The position numbers were made by a program, and so were the translations under genes. A stretch of DNA of 10,439 bases from a virus (taxonomy: Duplodnaviria; Heunggongvirae; Uroviricota; Caudoviricetes), in the IMG/VR virus record IMGVR_UViG_2541047926_000009, positions 1 to 10,439 of that record; one strand, given 5' to 3'. The stretch's first letter is position 1, and each line of letters opens with the position of its first letter. The notes below the pieces were generated by a model. That model was not told where the DNA came from. It saw only the letters and a program-made list of their open reading frames with translations, and ran no database searches. This document shows, piece by piece, positions 1 to 7,585 of the stretch.

Positions 1-678
1 TTAATCGTACGAGTCGAGTATGTTCTGAAACGCCCAGCCATCCTCCTTAGGAACACAAGACAGAATCGAATGAATTAGATCCCCTGCGGAAAGAAGTAAC
101 CCTTCTTGCCCTTCAAGAAAATAACGCCATTTAGGTCCATGAAACAGATTGTTCCGTAACCGGAAACAAACGAACAAGCACACTGCAAGCTGAGTCTCAG
201 GCTCGGTTGTCATAGCTTGCATGGCTGAAAAACAGTCATCTCTCGCCTTTTGAGAGGTGTGGTGTAATTCCCCGCATAGGCTTTCAAACTTGCTTTTATC
301 ATTTACATAGCGTTCTGAAAAAAAATCGTATGTACACTTGAGAACCCCCAGATCCACAACCTCCATTTGCAAAAGACGATTGGCATATTTCGCACTTTTG
401 CCTTGCCCCCCAGCGCAATTAAGAAGTAGAGACTCGAAGAAAGAGAAGTACAAAAAATAACGATTAACGGCGGTAAGGATAGATGGGGTAATCCTGCCTT
501 CTGCATTAATCAACTCGTCAAATTCTGATGAAAAATCCAACTGTTCATCCTTTTCCATTATATTCGGCCATTTATTGATATTGCACATCAGTCGCTCTTG
601 GCAATGACAGGTTTGCTCTCGGTAATGTCTCAAACGCCCCAAAAAGTAGTCTCGCAAATGCTCTAGTTGCTCGCGCAT
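1..678 (-). CDS. Hypothetical accessory (moron) protein, 225 aa; contains a HEPN-like Rx4H motif (FRLRNNLFHG); candidate abortive-infection/defence protein
   Basis: Complete ORF on - strand (ATG at 676-678, TAA at 1-3). Visibly AT-rich relative to the lambda-like core genes. Preceded upstream by a - strand intrinsic terminator (803..830), so it is probably its own transcription unit. Only a weak GAAG RBS. No recognised family beyond the short motif. Confidence 0.5.
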   Translation of the reverse strand: MREQLEHLRDYFLGRLRHYREQTCHCQERLMCNINKWPNIMEKDEQLDFSSEFDELINAEGRITPSILTAVNRYFLYFSFFESLLLNCAGGQGKSAKYANRLLQMEVVDLGVLKCTYDFFSERYVNDKSKFESLCGELHHTSQKARDDCFSAMQAMTTEPETQLAVCLFVCFRLRNNLFHGPKWRYFLEGQEGLLLSAGDLIHSILSCVPKEDGWAFQNILDSYD

Positions 679-802
679 AACAACTTCGGCGATAACCGGC
701 TATTCGGTCGTTCTTTATACGCTACGCTTGAAGGCGCAAGGCCAACGCTTACCTTGTCACGTTCCAATTGCGGTTTTGCTGCAATGTTCCTGTCAGTCTG
801 AC

Positions 803-830
803 ATAAAAAACCCCTCAATCATCTGAGGGG
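803..830 (-). terminator. Rho-independent terminator (- strand)
   Basis: Perfect 7-bp stem CCCCTCA (811-817) / TGAGGGG (824-830) with 6-nt loop; on the - strand it is followed by a U-run (complement of the A-run at 805-810). Lies just downstream of the stop of ORF 839..1039 (-). Confidence 0.55.
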
Positions 831-838
831 ATTAGACA

Positions 839-1039
839 TCATTGCTTCCAATACTTTTGAACCCGGATATTCATTGGCACACAAACATTTTCATAGATAG
901 GGCCGCTAACAGTCATGACTATATAAATACCATCAAGACCATCAATATTAAGCGAGAGTCTATCTCCGGCTCTAACCTCACGCTCTAGTTCAATATCTTC
1001 TACTCGTCCAGTATCATCAAAAGTCACTGAATACATCAT
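839..1039 (-). CDS. Hypothetical small protein, 66 aa
   Basis: ORF with ATG start and TGA stop immediately followed by the terminator at 803..830; weak RBS (GGAA); no recognisable domain. Confidence 0.35.
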   Translation of the reverse strand: MMYSVTFDDTGRVEDIELEREVRAGDRLSLNIDGLDGIYIVMTVSGPIYENVCVPMNIRVQKYWKQ

Positions 1040-1201
1040 TTCAAATTTCCATCTAAGTGCATGAGGTGTCTAACGAAAATACCATAAAGAGAATTTGATT
1101 ACATTGAACTTTTTCAGTGCTTACTTGGCTTATCTGAAGCCTTAATCATTGCCGCCCAGTGCGCTACCTGCTTGCATCCATTCAGCGCCTAATATGTAAA
1201 A

Positions 1202-1810
1202 CTATTGCAATCTAGCCTGACGCAAATGTGGCAATACCCTGCTCCACTTATTATCCTGCCAAGGCTGGAATTTTACATGTGCCGTTTTTCTGGCAAGGAT
1301 TTCGCGCGCCTTATGTAGTATCTGGGGATATTCTTGCTCGATAGAAGTAAAGCGACCGGCTTCGCGGTGTTCCGCAACCTGAAGAAGTGGAGTAACGTTC
1401 TGGCAGGCGGTTAACATCGTATCACTTGCTCGCCATAACCAAGCAAGTGTGCAAAGTTCGTTATCAGTGAATTGTTTTGTGATCGGGGATTGTTGAACTT
1501 CTCGATCGAGAATATCCAGAACCCAGCGGCGGAACTCTTTGGCTACAGGAGTTCGTGCAAACATGGCGATCAAATGGGCTCCGCGAAGGCTAAATACTCG
1601 AGACTCCTGCATTCCACGAGGGGTGGTCACTTTGACCACCCTTGTCATCATATCTGTAAATTCATCTGAGTGACGAGAGTAAATGCGCTGAACTGCTTTA
1701 TCGTCCGCATATTCCAGAGCTAAACCAACTTCAGTGGCAGTAAGCCAAATTCTGTTATTGTGGCAAATTGGGGTAAACGTCGTTTTGTGGAATGCTAATT
1801 GAGTAGTCAT
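1202..1810 (-). CDS. Bro-N / antirepressor-like (Roi-like) N-terminal domain protein, 202 aa
   Basis: ORF with a good RBS (GAGGTG about 6 nt upstream of ATG 1808-1810). The N-terminal ~100 aa follow the Bro-N/ANT pattern (W-L-x-A-x-E-V ... G-x-Q ... AK-E-F-x-x-W-V). Located in the nin-region position downstream of P. Domain call is from pattern recall only. Confidence 0.5.
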   Translation of the reverse strand: MTTQLAFHKTTFTPICHNNRIWLTATEVGLALEYADDKAVQRIYSRHSDEFTDMMTRVVKVTTPRGMQESRVFSLRGAHLIAMFARTPVAKEFRRWVLDILDREVQQSPITKQFTDNELCTLAWLWRASDTMLTACQNVTPLLQVAEHREAGRFTSIEQEYPQILHKAREILARKTAHVKFQPWQDNKWSRVLPHLRQARLQ

Positions 1811-1966
1811 AGTATCACCTCATCAGGTTAACCATCACCACCAACGACGCCAATCGACTGGTGGTGAACTGTGCAAGGTTGGCGTAACCGGCTACTCAAA
1901 CCCGGCGCTCCCGAAGAAGCCCTCACACAGCCCACCATAATTTGGGCGTAGCCGTGCTTAGCGCAT

Positions 1967-1987
1967 AAAAAAACCGCTTAACGCGGT
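1967..1987 (-). terminator. Putative tR2-like intrinsic terminator (- strand)
   Basis: Stem ACCGC (1973-1977) / GCGGT (1983-1987), 5-nt loop; on the - strand followed by a 7-nt U-run (complement of A-run 1967-1973). Sits downstream of the P operon and upstream of the Bro-N gene. Confidence 0.4.
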
Positions 1988-2476
1988 ATGCGTTGAGTAG
2001 TATTCCGGGACGCCAATCCCGTGTGCCGATTTTGCGGCAACGCACAGAATATAGCGCCGGATAAATAATGTCGTCAACCCTTGCAAATGGGGGGCGCGAT
2101 GATCACTACTACCACTATAACCGCTCCAACTGTTGCAACTACTTTAGGCCAAGACATCAAGATTTCCATATCACCTTTAGCTGCGAAACGAACAGAGGTT
2201 CCCATCTCTATACTGCCGAGGCCAAACACCGAATATAAAAAACCGCAGGTGCATCTCTGCATCTGTGAAGGGAGAAGAGAGTTTGGATTGTATGTGCGCA
2301 TAAACGTCCCCGTTTAGCGCAGAAGTCACCGGAGTTGTTCATATTCTGATGACATGATAATTTCCTATTGAATAGAAAAAATTAACACTACTCATTCTTA
2401 TGACTGGAAAAAGCAATCATGCTAATAATCATTGTTGTTCCAGTTCCAAATGCAGCGAAATAATCACTAATATTTT

Positions 2477-2506
2477 TTCTACCGGTTTCGACTTTGATGC
2501 TATATT
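2477..2506 (+). promoter_or_regulatory. Candidate sigma70 promoter for ORF 2560..2907
   Basis: -35 TTCTAC (2477-2482), 18-bp spacer, -10 TATATT (2501-2506) in a very AT-rich intergenic stretch about 55 bp upstream of the ATG. Confidence 0.3.
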
Positions 2507-2559
2507 CTGCTAACACCTAACTAACACTACGTTTCACACAGCAATTACATGGAAATAAC

Positions 2560-2907
2560 ATGACTATCAAAGCGACTGACATAGAGATTCTTCATCGTTA
2601 TGCTGAAGGGGTAATGGAACGTTCTAACCATCATGCAAAAAATGTTGGTGCAGCCGCTCTTACATTGCTAGGAGGTGTTATCTGGAAAGCCCTGCCCGGC
2701 TCAATCGAGATAAGAACGTATAACGGAAGTCTTGCAAATATGGTGTGGTGGCAAAGCGAAAGAACATTAAAAAATTATGCAATCTCATACAACCATAATT
2801 CATGTGAAATTGAAATGAGAGATGAATCAGTCAAAGGTGCTGTATTATTTAGCATTTCCAACGAAACCACTCCAGAAAAAATATTATCACAGCTTTCTGA
2901 GCTTTAA
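2560..2907 (+). CDS. Hypothetical moron protein, 115 aa, opposite strand to the flanking early-right operon
   Basis: Clean ORF with ATG at 2560 and TAA at 2905-2907; AT-rich; own candidate promoter upstream and a perfect hairpin (2913..2930) immediately after the stop; convergent with P. No recognised family. Confidence 0.5.
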   Translation: MTIKATDIEILHRYAEGVMERSNHHAKNVGAAALTLLGGVIWKALPGSIEIRTYNGSLANMVWWQSERTLKNYAISYNHNSCEIEMRDESVKGAVLFSISNETTPEKILSQLSEL

Positions 2908-2912
2908 TTAAA

Positions 2913-2930
2913 GGCGGTGCTAACACCGCC
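2913..2930. terminator. Hairpin between convergent genes (ORF 2560..2907 and P)
   Basis: Perfect 7-bp stem GGCGGTG (2913-2919) / CACCGCC (2924-2930) with 4-nt loop ctaa. No clean T-run on the + strand; a partial U-rich tract on the - strand (uuuaauu). Confidence 0.35.
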
Positions 2931-3111
2931 CATACCATTACTCCACATCTTACGCAACTTGATAATTATGCTCTATTAAATACCCACAATATTTCATCAA
3001 TGCATGGGTCAGCTATAAAATGTTTACCGTGGTAATTCCTGTTTTCGCAACATCTCAAAAGAACAATAAACACTGTATTTCTTCAAGTAACGAAGAATCT
3101 TTCTTTGCCCG

Positions 3112-3813
3112 TCATACACTTGCTCCTTTCAGCCCAAACTTAGCTTTGATTTCTGCGATCTTCGCCAGAGCCTGTGCACGATTTAGAGGTCTACCGCCCA
3201 TGACAGGAAGTTGTTTTACTGGTTCAGGTATCGCCTCACCACGGTTAATTCGCGCGGTCATACAGGTCAGCTCATCGGCAGCTTTACGCCGTAATTCCGC
3301 GTCAGTCAGCGCATTGGCCCGCATGTTCTGGTACAGGTTGGTAACCAACCAGTAGTGCGCGTTTGATTTCCATGGATAAGACTCTGCGTCCGGATACAGG
3401 CCACGCTTCCGGCAATACTCGTAAACCATATCAACCAGCTCGCTGACGTTTGGCAGCCCGGCGTTAACGGATGCTTCTTCCCGGCACCAGGCCACAAACT
3501 GCCCGGGTGATGGCAGGAATGGTCGATTCTGCCGACGGGCTACGCGCATTCCTGCGTTAACCTGTTCCATTGTGGTGATCCCGTTTTCCCGGAAAGCCAG
3601 CACCCACTGGCGGCGGATTTCGTTCAGTTCGTTCTGATCCCGGTTAGCCAGGCTCGCAGGGAAAGTTGCCAGTAACTGGCTGAACACACCGTTGATGATC
3701 TGCGCTACCTGCTGTACCTGCGGCTTTTCGTCGTACTGTTCCGGCATATTGTTGGCGATCCGGCGCATCTGCTCACGGTCAAAGTTAACCATCTGTGCGG
3801 CGATGTTTTTCAT
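3112..3813 (-). CDS. P: Replication protein P (DnaB helicase loader), lambda-type, 233 aa
   Basis: The 233-aa translation (MKNIAAQMVNFDREQMRRIANNMPEQYDEKPQVQQ ... KFGLKGASV) is near-identical to phage lambda P as recalled. The start ATG (3811-3813) overlaps the O stop (TGA 3810-3812) in an ATGA arrangement. Confidence 0.95.
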   Translation of the reverse strand: MKNIAAQMVNFDREQMRRIANNMPEQYDEKPQVQQVAQIINGVFSQLLATFPASLANRDQNELNEIRRQWVLAFRENGITTMEQVNAGMRVARRQNRPFLPSPGQFVAWCREEASVNAGLPNVSELVDMVYEYCRKRGLYPDAESYPWKSNAHYWLVTNLYQNMRANALTDAELRRKAADELTCMTARINRGEAIPEPVKQLPVMGGRPLNRAQALAKIAEIKAKFGLKGASV

Positions 3814-4739
3814 AAATCCACCCCGTAAATCCAGTCAGTGTTCGTCAGGTCGAGTTTTGGTTTGCCGGCTGTCACGCCAGCCTGTTGCTTGTTTCGGTTG
3901 ATTTCGAGCTGGGTCCACTTGTCGCGGAGTTTGGCCGGACTCAGCACGTTACCGGACCAGAAGTTGTCCTGGCATGCCCAGCGGAACAGCACGCACATGT
4001 CGCGGTGGTTATGTCCGTCACGTTCACGCATCAGGCGGATATCGTTAGCCCACCCTGCAAAATTCGGTTTTCTGGCTGATGGCGCGATGGTCTTCACCAT
4101 GTCAAACATCCACTCTGCGGCGGTCAGGTCTTCTGCTGTCCCCCACTTGCTGCCACTCTGAATTGCAGCATCTGGTTTCACCACAGGAAGATCGTTTTCT
4201 GGTTGGTCAGAGGATTCGCCAGAATTCTCGGACGAAAAAGGTTTTATATTGTCTTTTGTTAGTTTGTCTTTTGTGTTTACCTGATTCGGGTAAACGCCTT
4301 TACCTGATTTGGGTAAACTTTTCTTACCTGATTCAGGTAAATTTACCTCTTTCAGGTAAACTTTATTTTTCTTACCTGATTCGGGTAATGTTGACCATTC
4401 ACTGACCACATTATTAATACCGATATTCCGCCCGCTCTGAATCAAAATCCCACGCTTTACCAGAACACTTTTTGCAGCAGAACACTTGTGCGGCAATATC
4501 CCGGTCAATTCGGAAAGTTGCTCGTTGCTAACCCAATCCAGTTTTTTATTAAAGCCATATGTTTTGCGCATGACAGCCAGGAAGACCAGAAGCTGGTGCT
4601 GTGTTAATCCGGCCAGCATCACAGCTTCCAGCAACTCATTTGCAATGCGCGTATAACCATCATCGAGATCTGCCACGCGCGGCTCCTTTTGTGCCACATC
4701 CGGCACTGGAAAATTGAATATCTCAGCAGTGTTTGCCAT
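3810..4739 (-). CDS. O: Replication initiator O (lambdoid O protein) with divergent N-terminal iteron-binding domain and lambda-like C-terminal P-interaction domain
   Basis: C-terminus (ANDIRLMRERD ... KLRDKWTQLEINRNKQQAGVTAGKPKLDLTNTDWIYGVDL) closely matches lambda O; N-terminus (MANTAEIFNF ... VADLDDGYTRIANELLEA) is related but diverged. Start chosen at ATG 4737-4739 because GGGAGGAA lies 6 nt upstream; the ORF track's longer start at 4829 lacks this RBS. Iterons lie inside the gene. Confidence 0.9.
   Translation of the reverse strand: MANTAEIFNFPVPDVAQKEPRVADLDDGYTRIANELLEAVMLAGLTQHQLLVFLAVMRKTYGFNKKLDWVSNEQLSELTGILPHKCSAAKSVLVKRGILIQSGRNIGINNVVSEWSTLPESGKKNKVYLKEVNLPESGKKSLPKSGKGVYPNQVNTKDKLTKDNIKPFSSENSGESSDQPENDLPVVKPDAAIQSGSKWGTAEDLTAAEWMFDMVKTIAPSARKPNFAGWANDIRLMRERDGHNHRDMCVLFRWACQDNFWSGNVLSPAKLRDKWTQLEINRNKQQAGVTAGKPKLDLTNTDWIYGVDL
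4277..4388. repeat. Origin of replication: five 17-bp iterons (consensus TTACCTGATTCGGGTAA) with adjacent AT-rich tract
   Basis: Iterons at 4277-4293, 4300-4316, 4324-4340, 4343-4359 and 4372-4388, each with internal dyad symmetry (TTACC...GGTAA); they encode the LPESGKK repeats in O. An AT-rich tract (about 4237-4276) lies on the O-distal side, matching lambda ori architecture (iterons plus AT-rich region inside O). The iteron sequence differs from lambda. Confidence 0.75.
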
Positions 4740-5684: not shown

Positions 5685-5722
5685 TAGCAAAACGTGTTTT
5701 GACCATCAATACGCAAGCGTAT
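5658..5722. promoter_or_regulatory. oR-like operator cluster: three 14-bp sites at 25-26 bp spacing
   Basis: ATAGCAATGCGTAT (5658-5671), ATAGCAAAACGTGT (5684-5697) and ATACGCAAGCGTAT (5709-5722, near-palindrome ATACGC/GCGTAT). They overlap the pR -10, the region between the two -35 elements, and the pRM -10 respectively, mirroring lambda OR1-OR2-OR3. Confidence 0.5.
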
Positions 5723-5725
5723 AAA
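5699..5725 (+). promoter_or_regulatory. pRM-like promoter for cI (leaderless or near-leaderless transcript)
   Basis: -35 TTGACC (5699-5704), -10 TATAAA (5720-5725). The cI ATG (5735) is only about 10 bp after the -10 and has no Shine-Dalgarno, as for lambda cI transcribed from pRM. Confidence 0.45.
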
Positions 5726-5734
5726 TTAAAACTT

Positions 5735-6427
5735 ATGAAAAAAGAAACTCTTGCTGATCGCTTAAACCTAGCGATGGAACAATCTGGAATGTCTCAAGGC
5801 GCTCTTGCAAAGGCGTCTGGCGTAGCTCAACCCACAATCTGGAGACTGACAAGCGGCAACGCGCGCGGCTCAACAAAAATTGTTGAAATAGCTAATGCAT
5901 TGGGTGTTCGAACAGAATGGCTCTCATCAGGCATAGGCCCGATGAGAAATGACGGTCAACAATCAGGGAAGCCTGCTGTCAGCCATTCCAAATACTTCAA
6001 AATTGACGTTCTTGATATAGAAGTCAGTGCCGGGCCGGGTGTAATCAACCGTGAGTTTGTAGAAGTTCTACGCTCGGTTGAGTACTCGTTTGACGATGCT
6101 CGTCACATGTTCGATGGCAGGAAGGCGGAAAATATCCGCATCATTAACGTGCGTGGTGACAGCATGTCAGGAACGATCGAACCAGGTGATCTTTTGTTCG
6201 TTGATATCACTGTTAAATCTTTCGACGGTGATGGTATCTATGCGTTTCTGTACGACGACACAGCCCATGTAAAGCGCCTGCAAATGATGAAGGATAAGCT
6301 ACTGGTTATCTCTGATAACAAGAGCTACTCACCGTGGGACCCGATCGAGAAAGACGAGATGAACCGGGTGTTCATCTTCGGTAAGGTTATTGGGAGCATG
6401 CCGCAGACATACAGGAAGCATGGTTGA
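5735..6427 (+). CDS. cI: cI-like prophage repressor (N-terminal HTH, C-terminal LexA/S24 autopeptidase domain), 230 aa
   Basis: HTH region (GMSQGALAKASGVAQPTIWRL), candidate Ala-Gly autocleavage site (EVSAGPG), S24 catalytic Ser motif (RGDSMSG) and downstream Lys (AHVKRL). Divergent from cro across the operator region. Start set at ATG 5735; the track start at 5699 is a TTG with no RBS. Not lambda, 434 or P22 immunity by recall. Confidence 0.85.
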   Translation: MKKETLADRLNLAMEQSGMSQGALAKASGVAQPTIWRLTSGNARGSTKIVEIANALGVRTEWLSSGIGPMRNDGQQSGKPAVSHSKYFKIDVLDIEVSAGPGVINREFVEVLRSVEYSFDDARHMFDGRKAENIRIINVRGDSMSGTIEPGDLLFVDITVKSFDGDGIYAFLYDDTAHVKRLQMMKDKLLVISDNKSYSPWDPIEKDEMNRVFIFGKVIGSMPQTYRKHG

Positions 6428-6603: not shown

Positions 6604-6783
6604 ATGATTCGCAAATTATTAAAAATTATTGAATCTAAACCCCCTAGGGCCACTGATGCAGAGGTTCAGGAAGTTATTGACGAAATAAAGAAAAAACAAA
6701 ATGAAATTGCCGAAAAGAAGGAAGAGATAAAGAATGACCGTATCCGCGGCGCAAGAATCACAAACCACCGATTCATTGTATGA
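6604..6783 (+). CDS. Possible small Lys/Glu-rich protein, 59 aa, overlapping the start of the 283-aa ORF
   Basis: ATG 6604 to TGA 6781-6783 (MIRKLLKIIESKPPRATDAEVQEVIDEIKKKQNEIAEKKEEIKNDRIRGARITNHRFIV); not in the supplied track (below its size cutoff). Weak RBS (AAGAGA). Overlaps the downstream ORF by 50 bp in another frame. Could be spurious in AT-rich DNA. Confidence 0.25.
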   Translation: MIRKLLKIIESKPPRATDAEVQEVIDEIKKKQNEIAEKKEEIKNDRIRGARITNHRFIV

Positions 6784-7585
6784 TTTTCTATATGTTGATA
6801 ACAAGCGGGCATCATCGCTCTTGGCACAGATGCATGGGCCTGGTGTAATAACATCTATCAGACAGGTAACAGCTGAAGTTGACAAATCAGTAAGTGATGC
6901 CGGCTTTGACATTAAAATCATTAAGTCAAAACTTGGTGTTGAGGAAACTATCAATTACACCCATGAAAAAAGCTATGATGCTTCATGGACGCTTCCTATT
7001 AACCTCTTAGATAAACTTTCTGAAAATGATCTAATAAAAACAGAACTTAATGGTGAAAGACTTGGGAGTACTGTTTTATCTAAAGGCCATGTTCGTATTT
7101 TTGATATTTCCATGTTTCAAAAAAGCGTCCCGTTTGTAGCAAAAATGCTAAAGGCAGAACGCTCCAAGCTACCGCCAAAAGCAAAAAAAACGAATGATAG
7201 TATTGACGAAATCCCCGTCTCGCCCGGTGTCACTTTTGGCATGATGAAAGAAGTACTTAATATTGTCCCGAACACATTGCAGGTTGATTTTATTAATGAT
7301 TTTGGTCAAACCATTTGGATGACTATTAATCGTGATTACCTCACCATTAATCCAGACGATATGGTTCTAAAATATGGTGGGAGTATTCCAGGCGAATGGT
7401 ACGTACTTGGTTTTATCGATGCCCTTCCTGAATATGACCAAGAACTTTTCGATATGTCTGTGTTCCCGTCAAACCCTTTGAAAGATGGCATAACAGAAAT
7501 GCTTTCTGGGATAAAAGAATTAGCAGGCCGCAGTAGCACCGCATACGGAATGACTCCTCTTGTGATTTTCAGGAAAATTCAGTAA
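6734..7585 (+). CDS. Hypothetical protein, 283 aa, at the position occupied by rexA/rexB in lambda; candidate superinfection-exclusion/anti-phage defence protein
   Basis: Long ORF with RBS AAGGAAG about 10 nt upstream of ATG 6734 and TAA at 7583-7585; visibly AT-rich; own promoter upstream and a strong terminator right after. No Walker, nuclease or transmembrane motif recognised by eye. Function is inferred from genomic context only. Confidence 0.6.
   Translation: MTVSAAQESQTTDSLYDFLYVDNKRASSLLAQMHGPGVITSIRQVTAEVDKSVSDAGFDIKIIKSKLGVEETINYTHEKSYDASWTLPINLLDKLSENDLIKTELNGERLGSTVLSKGHVRIFDISMFQKSVPFVAKMLKAERSKLPPKAKKTNDSIDEIPVSPGVTFGMMKEVLNIVPNTLQVDFINDFGQTIWMTINRDYLTINPDDMVLKYGGSIPGEWYVLGFIDALPEYDQELFDMSVFPSNPLKDGITEMLSGIKELAGRSSTAYGMTPLVIFRKIQ

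Follow-up and report, generated by a model that had tools for sequence, protein, structure and literature searches.

A 225-codon open reading frame (ORF) in a lambdoid E. coli prophage raises the question of whether it encodes a phage-defence RNase or a protein of another kind. The first-pass annotation had described it as an AT-rich accessory gene, insulated by its own terminator in the manner of a lysogen-expressed moron, and had offered as a hypothesis that a short stretch of its product fits the Rx4-6H motif of HEPN RNases. The window, meaning the whole 10,439-nt stretch that was analysed, has the early-right operon of the prophage on its minus strand. In the order of transcription, this comprises a cro-like gene, a YdaT-domain gene, O, P, and the isrK and C4 small RNAs, followed by a Bro-N/P22AR antirepressor gene, a 66-aa ORF, a hairpin, the remnant of a DNA polymerase III theta gene and the ORF in question. 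The DNA of the window is also found in E. coli B1S11, which has an identical prophage (L001), and there the ORF is followed on its 3' side by a 33-aa ORF, ybcN, ninE, ybcO, rusA, ylcG and Q. These downstream genes, from ybcN to Q, place the ORF in the nin region, where it had been assigned at the outset.

Rfam and tRNA scans found no RNA gene in positions 1-838. Farther upstream in the operon, the C4 antisense RNA (1857-1942, minus strand; Rfam, 72.7 bits) and the Hfq-binding isrK small RNA (1967-2039, minus strand; Rfam, 60.7 bits) lie directly upstream of the Bro-N/P22AR antirepressor gene (1202-1810, minus strand). This looks like an antirepressor module controlled by small RNAs of the P1/Gifsy type, situated within a lambdoid early operon.

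The 838-nt segment with the ORF and the 66-aa ORF beside it contain four features, where X denotes the gene proper and its product:

1..558, minus strand: gene X, 185 aa from M41, with a start homologous to that of its relatives and a TAA stop codon at 1-3
559..801, minus strand: DNA polymerase III theta (holE/HOT-like) pseudogene, recognised from three-frame translations, PF06440 and alignment with intact theta genes
803..830, minus strand: intrinsic-terminator-like hairpin (CCCCTCAG-ATGA-TTGAGGGG) followed by T6, from a scan and RNA folding
839..1039, minus strand: 66-aa ORF of unknown function (PHROG 38858), the conserved left flank in E. coli loci

The ORF at 1..678 on the minus strand was confirmed as an open frame of 225 aa with an ATG start. 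As a gene model it did not hold, its N-terminus being a remnant of the theta pseudogene. Homologues of X are 183-203 aa long and cover ~80% of the ORF, and in a DNA alignment their start codon coincides with M41 (nt 558); the real protein is therefore ~185-195 aa, encoded by window 1-558/588 on the minus strand. The longer form would begin at an alternative start, M31 (nt 588, 195 aa), which has a better Shine-Dalgarno-like sequence (AAGAG) than M41 and is used in one database entry (P0001). Residues 1-~30 of the ORF (MREQLEHLRDYFLGRLRHYREQ...) correspond to the C-terminal part of theta. The sole Pfam match to the 225-aa ORF is PF06440 (DNA_pol3_theta), which aligns profile positions 41-62 of 70 with residues 2-23 at E = 9.5e-4 and is below threshold (19.3 bits versus a cut-off of 34.6). 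The body of X is unrelated to theta and its phage P1 HOT-like relatives; the remnant has been fused to it by frameshifts and loss of a stop codon.

The course of this decay can be read from alignment with intact theta genes. The theta ATG is at 801-799, and codon 4 is a premature TGA (M-S-D-stop) that results from a +4 nt insertion at 788-791, directly after ATGTCAGACT. Farther on, one nucleotide is missing between 700 and 701 (-1 nt), and the net shift of +3 returns the 3' part of theta to the frame set by the ATG at 801. Because the theta stop codon is gone, the remnant reads into X and supplies residues 1-40 of the ORF, and the 225-aa reading is thus an artefact. With two frameshifts relative to intact copies, the window contains no intact theta ORF (~75 aa). 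In related prophages (L004, L007 and L011), an intact 75-85-aa theta lies between the same hairpin and an X homologue, and in L011 the two genes overlap; in L005, L006 and L008-L010 theta is degraded or missing. X itself is intact although the adjoining theta gene has decayed, which speaks for selection on X. The RefSeq 225-aa model, WP_024238538.1, is probably over-extended by the pseudogene remnant.

The hairpin and its T-run are real, with a stem at 811-830 of 8 pairs (5 GC) and the T-run at 805-810 on the minus strand, and the RNA folds at -16 kcal/mol (z = -2.35). The T-run abuts the theta ATG at 801, and the stem is conserved in all six loci aligned, from E. coli and Klebsiella, with a different loop in Klebsiella. 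Since it abuts the theta ATG and is conserved with theta, the hairpin forms the 5' edge of a theta module rather than a terminator of X's own. Its 3' arm, GAGGGG, doubles as the theta Shine-Dalgarno sequence, with the theta ATG 6 nt downstream of the stem, an arrangement kept in E. coli and Klebsiella loci. The hairpin could thus have two effects, ending transcription and blocking the translation of theta.

These results bear directly on the proposal that X is a moron. The supposed insulating terminator lies upstream and belongs to theta, and nothing of the kind directly follows X in B1S11, where the next terminator-like site is inside the downstream 33-aa ORF. A consensus scan of the minus strand from 558 to 810 found no sigma-70-like promoter, although a weak promoter could escape such a scan. 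X has a GC content of 43.0% (GC3 43%) versus 46.5% for the window, which is unremarkable: the other genes of the window range from 38.8% to 54.3% (Rha, 46.8%), and three of them, at 38.8-39.4%, are much more AT-rich. X is also co-oriented with the early-right (nin) operon and embedded within it. The moron reading was rejected on base composition, terminator position and the promoter scan. Two other genes of the window are of interest in this regard. A VCH_CASS14 (integron-cassette protein) family gene at 2560-2907 on the plus strand (PF18315, E = 5.7e-20) is a better moron candidate than X, because it is on the strand opposite to the early operon and has a GC content of 38.8% (GC3 31%). A DUF6414-family gene at 6734-7585 on the plus strand is AT-rich (39.4% GC) and lies just downstream of a cI-like S24 repressor gene (5699-6427), where lambda has rexAB; this may be a further accessory or defence gene that the lysogen expresses.

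The position of X was clarified by a prophage in which it is replaced. In E. coli 95-3322 both flanks are kept, namely the 66-aa ORF, the hairpin and the frameshifted theta before the cargo and the 33-aa ORF, ybcN and ninE after it, and a different gene of 210 aa stands exactly in the slot of X. The encoded protein matches HepS (PDB 9oij) with E = 6.9e-62. Homology between X-type and HepS-type prophages breaks within the 3' end of theta, at about window position 658, and resumes at most ~10 nt after the stop codon of the cargo gene, and hence exactly one gene has been exchanged. The 66-aa ORF is outside the cargo and flanks the hairpin-theta-cargo unit on the left in E. coli loci. In other strains the slot is filled by a second X allele, 68% identical. 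X is therefore the single-gene cargo of a nin-region swap slot in lambdoid enterobacterial prophages, bounded by the conserved hairpin and theta gene on one side and by the 33-aa-ORF/ybcN/ninE block on the other.

HepS is the 'HEPN solo' abortive-infection protein STM14_3211 of Gifsy-1, an experimentally proven anticodon nuclease (Sargen et al., Nature 2026, PMC13043305). It is made constitutively in lysogens from its native promoter as an inactive tetramer, which is activated to cut tRNA anticodon loops by the siphovirus tail-tip protein J (PMC13043305). In Salmonella, HepS occupies an equivalent, co-oriented position after the replication genes. The comparison with HepS suggests that X is its functional analogue, the shared slot being the strongest contextual argument. 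Both are stand-alone prophage proteins of ~200 aa with an RNxxxH motif, all-alpha in HepS and by prediction in X, and both are single-gene cargo of the post-replication accessory region of lambdoid prophages, without a conserved partner. However, there is no detectable sequence or profile similarity between them in searches of PDB or by hhalign (probability 0.1 for the X family versus the HepS family, with a shallow HepS alignment of 10 sequences at ≥50% identity). The motif is also in the middle of HepS (R100-H105 of ~210 aa), whereas in X it is near the C-terminal third (R135-H140 of 185 aa). By analogy with HepS, which is constitutively expressed although co-oriented at equivalent positions, X may still be expressed in the lysogen, and this is compatible with the promoter-less scan result.

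That X is an accessory gene was upheld. Neither lambda nor any of 50,697 phage records contains it (tblastn, E ≤ 1e-5), and its close relatives (56-86% identity) are confined to prophages of Enterobacteriaceae, where they are always in the nin region with theta or a theta remnant before them and ybcN/ninE after. DNA of window 1-1200 is present in 6 of 5,426 complete E. coli genomes, three of which have the X part. One of these three copies is truncated by an IS421 insertion (L003, E. coli 2022CK-00450, 2833-4298) and has lost the equivalent of window nt 1-260, including the RNNLFH codons. The wider family is large. When 1.84 billion cluster representatives were searched with a profile and no word index, 549 relatives emerged at E ≤ 1e-3, most of 160-180 aa; a word-indexed search gave 610 clusters, all annotated 'hypothetical protein' and none with a Pfam domain. 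Overall, the family comprises more than 600 clusters at 90% identity from Proteobacteria, Bacteroidota, Acidobacteriota and prophages, and members are present on 56 IMG/VR viral contigs. The only library family that matches both X and its remote relatives is PHROG 27260 (E = 5.6e-9 to 6.5e-14), which is without annotation and so gives membership and no function.

Conservation within this family was assessed in two alignments, A3, whose 47 sequences came from the profile search that used no word index, and A8 (137 sequences). The FRLRNNLFHG stretch that had drawn attention to the ORF is present at ORF residues 172-181 (nt 136-165), and three features relate to it:

127..165, minus strand: codons for FRLRNNLFHGPKW, ORF residues 172-184, from alignments A3 and A8 and both structural models
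139-156, minus strand: Rx4H, R175-H180, invariant in A3 and A8
433..435, minus strand: codon of the invariant Glu, E82 of the ORF and E42 of the 185-aa protein, in A3 and A8, within an FE motif in helix 25-46

The Rx4H motif is the best-conserved block of the X family. Neither A3 nor A8 has an exception at R135 and H140 (185-aa numbering; R175 and H180 in the ORF); the whole FRLRNNLFHGPKW block is invariant in A8, and its R, H, G and K are invariant in A3. At 20-30% identity, the residues that remain invariant in A3 are E42, R83, R135, N137, H140, G141 and K143. The residue after R135 is N136, which is replaced by H in some remote members (RLRHNLFHG). Further invariant residues, R83-Y84, R133, K143-W144 and Q151, lie outside the HEPN signature. 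Four cysteines (C48, C95, C127 and C131) are invariant in the enterobacterial subfamily but lack conservation beyond it, and might make up a metal or disulfide site peculiar to the subfamily. The motif as such is common by chance, occurring in 36% of shuffles of this protein and in two further copies in the ORF (at R2 and R20, in the theta-derived extension). The significance of R175-H180 therefore derives only from its invariance across the family and not from its presence.

AF2 models built with 37 and 137 sequences agree (pLDDT 88.2 and 91.7, pTM 0.85 and 0.88) and predict an all-alpha protein with helices at residues 9-16, 25-46, 52-64, 70-86, 88-95, 103-115, 120-140, 143-146 and 152-168. 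In both models RNNLFH ends the helix 120-139/140, with H140 as the helix end. G141-P142 then break the helix and are followed by a short helix (143-146) and helix 152-168, which together read as a kinked last helix. The HEPN domain has been defined as a four-helix up-down bundle in which helix 3 ends with the motif and the R is followed by a polar residue (N, D or H). Helix 2 bears an acidic residue, typically in an Ex3[KR] context and next to the motif in space; variable inserts occur between helices 2 and 3, and helix 4 is often kinked (Anantharaman et al. 2013, PMC3710099). At the level of conservation and predicted secondary structure, X fits the order of helices and key residues in this description. 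Its Rx4H is conserved, the R being followed by N or H, its motif is predicted to end the penultimate core helix before a kinked last helix, and its conserved acidic residue, E42, is in an earlier predicted helix (25-46) with a helical insert (52-115) between. The differences from HEPN proteins, such as the HepT/DUF86 toxins (1wwp, 1jog, 7ae2, 8xdj), AF0298 (2hsb) and the HEPN domain of AbiA (8oz7), are that the insert in X is unusually large (~65 residues), that E42 has the context FE-x-[KR] and not the usual Ex3[KR], and that X is without an MNT or other antitoxin neighbour. A search for HepT-like ORFs (regular expression RNx3HxY) found none in 149 loci.

Homology searches gave no tie to a known family. 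Pfam, including the HEPN clan, had no match to X, to 47 + 7 family members or to three consensus sequences, even at E ≤ 10. X had no match in PADLOC (PADLOC-DB v2) at E ≤ 1 and none in NCBIfam, profile searches of PDB sequences with three alignments gave noise only, and the best E-value from Foldseek against PDB was 1.0. The first-pass HEPN assignment thus survives in part. The motif is invariant in the family and is located where it should be in a confident AF2 model, but the Rx4H string by itself does not exceed chance, and Pfam, PDB, hhalign and Foldseek provided no match. We consider it plausible, with the chances roughly even, that X belongs to the HEPN superfamily.

The genes beside remote homologues provide a further view of the family. 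Among 75 co-directional immediate neighbours, PADLOC recognized pAgo class II (3), the PDC-S06 AAA_13 ATPase (3), PDC-S35 (2), DpdF (2) and TIR effectors (2), with single matches to PDC-S05, MzaB and mad2; these defence-gene neighbours were seen only beside X homologues at or below ~30% identity. Housekeeping genes, for instance those of topoisomerase and RecQ, are also among the neighbours. The overall pattern is that of defence-island and mobile-element cargo. In three loci (L081 59-4175, L082 1315-6642 and L085 1321-6648), a remote X homologue of ~174 aa is the middle gene of a tightly packed three-gene operon, between an upstream gene for an AAA_13 ATPase of ~860 aa (PADLOC PDC-S06; 459 aa in the contig-truncated L081) and a downstream gene for a 730-aa Piwi protein (pAgo class II, E = 8e-293). 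These pAgo-linked homologues were considered as Agap-HEPN proteins, an identity that was rejected because Agap is larger and has R262 and H267 as catalytic residues (PMC11162769). In 12 of 80 genome loci, mostly alphaproteobacterial (L015, L018, L027, L030, L034, L038, L040, L046, L047, L051, L061 and L071), a conserved soluble protein of ~230-290 aa without Pfam or PADLOC match is encoded directly downstream of the X homologue or overlapping it, and may be its partner in a two-gene system.

Several explanations of X have to be weighed. X might be an all-alpha protein that has nothing to do with HEPN in fold or function, whether an enzyme of another type or a protein with a binding or regulatory role; R-x-RNNLFHG-KW would then be an active or interaction site of another kind and the Rx4H spacing coincidental. 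The frequency of Rx4H in shuffled sequences and its two extra copies in the same ORF are in keeping with this, as are the failure of any profile or fold search to tie X significantly to a HEPN family and the invariance of R83-Y84, R133, K143-W144 and Q151, which are foreign to the HEPN signature. Yet the full local pattern agrees with HEPN, namely an R followed by N or H, an H at the end of a predicted helix, a Gly break and a predicted kinked final helix, and there is an invariant Glu in an earlier predicted helix, as in HEPN proteins (PMC3710099). Together with the slot that X has in common with HepS, this makes an unrelated protein unlikely. An association with the theta-like protein was also considered, for example one in which X modulates proofreading by the epsilon-theta module of host Pol III while the phage replicates. 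X directly follows theta in prophages of E. coli and Klebsiella, and the two genes overlap in L011, but theta is a pseudogene beside an intact X in the window and is lost or degraded in the five related loci mentioned above. Moreover, the same theta flank carries HepS and not X in 95-3322, and most remote homologues have no small co-directional gene immediately upstream. This idea was rejected on the decay of theta in the window and the presence of HepS beside the same flank elsewhere, and we regard it as highly improbable.

A separate matter, whether or not X is an RNase, is when it acts. X could be a delayed-early lytic gene that serves the phage and is transcribed from pR by N-antiterminated read-through of the hairpin, rather than a defence gene expressed in the lysogen; possible lytic roles are counter-defence, takeover of host RNA and control of superinfection during induction. 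Such a gene would have the orientation of X, which is that of O, P and the nin genes, and also its place, with the antirepressor/theta genes before it and ybcN-ninE-rusA-Q after it; there is neither a sigma-70-like promoter between the hairpin and X nor a terminator directly after it. By lambda biology, a terminator within the nin region is nothing unusual, since N overrides it. HepS, however, is in the same slot in 95-3322 and in the equivalent position in Salmonella and is nevertheless constitutive in lysogens. The remote homologues of X in chromosomal operons with pAgo, AAA_13 and TIR genes are likewise typical of defence and not of counter-defence. A purely lytic function seems rather unlikely.

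The invariance of RNNLFH, the predicted helices and the slot shared with HepS together suggest a HEPN-type RNase in phage defence. We tentatively propose, with slightly less than an even chance of being right, that X belongs to the HEPN-like RNases as a divergent member and that it is an effector of prophage defence or abortive infection which, in the manner of HepS, is self-contained. X would then be a metal-independent RNase with an active site composed of R175, N176 and H180 at the end of the third core helix and E82 from an earlier helix, probably completed by dimerization. It would be kept inactive, probably as an oligomer, until triggered by an infecting phage, whereupon it would cut tRNA or other RNA and phage growth would stop. 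A further reading, possible though on the unlikely side, is that X founds an unrecognized and widespread family of catalytic all-alpha proteins. This family could represent a new clade of HEPN that has diverged very far, or else a separate fold whose R-N-x3-H site arose by convergence. Its members would serve as solo anti-phage effectors in prophage swap slots, as the middle subunit of AAA_13(PDC-S06)-X-pAgo operons and as the partner of the ~250-aa alphaproteobacterial protein.

X is best regarded as a new, unannotated family with HEPN-like features, putatively one of solo defence or abortive-infection nucleases. If it is a HEPN-like solo nuclease, X would add a new single-gene defence family to those of E. 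coli prophages. The interval between hairpin-theta and ybcN would then be a position at which single genes for abortive-infection RNases are exchanged, X and HepS being alternative alleles, and could be mined for further unknown systems. Several hundred 'hypothetical proteins', the product of the middle gene in some pAgo operons among them, would likewise gain a pointer to their function.
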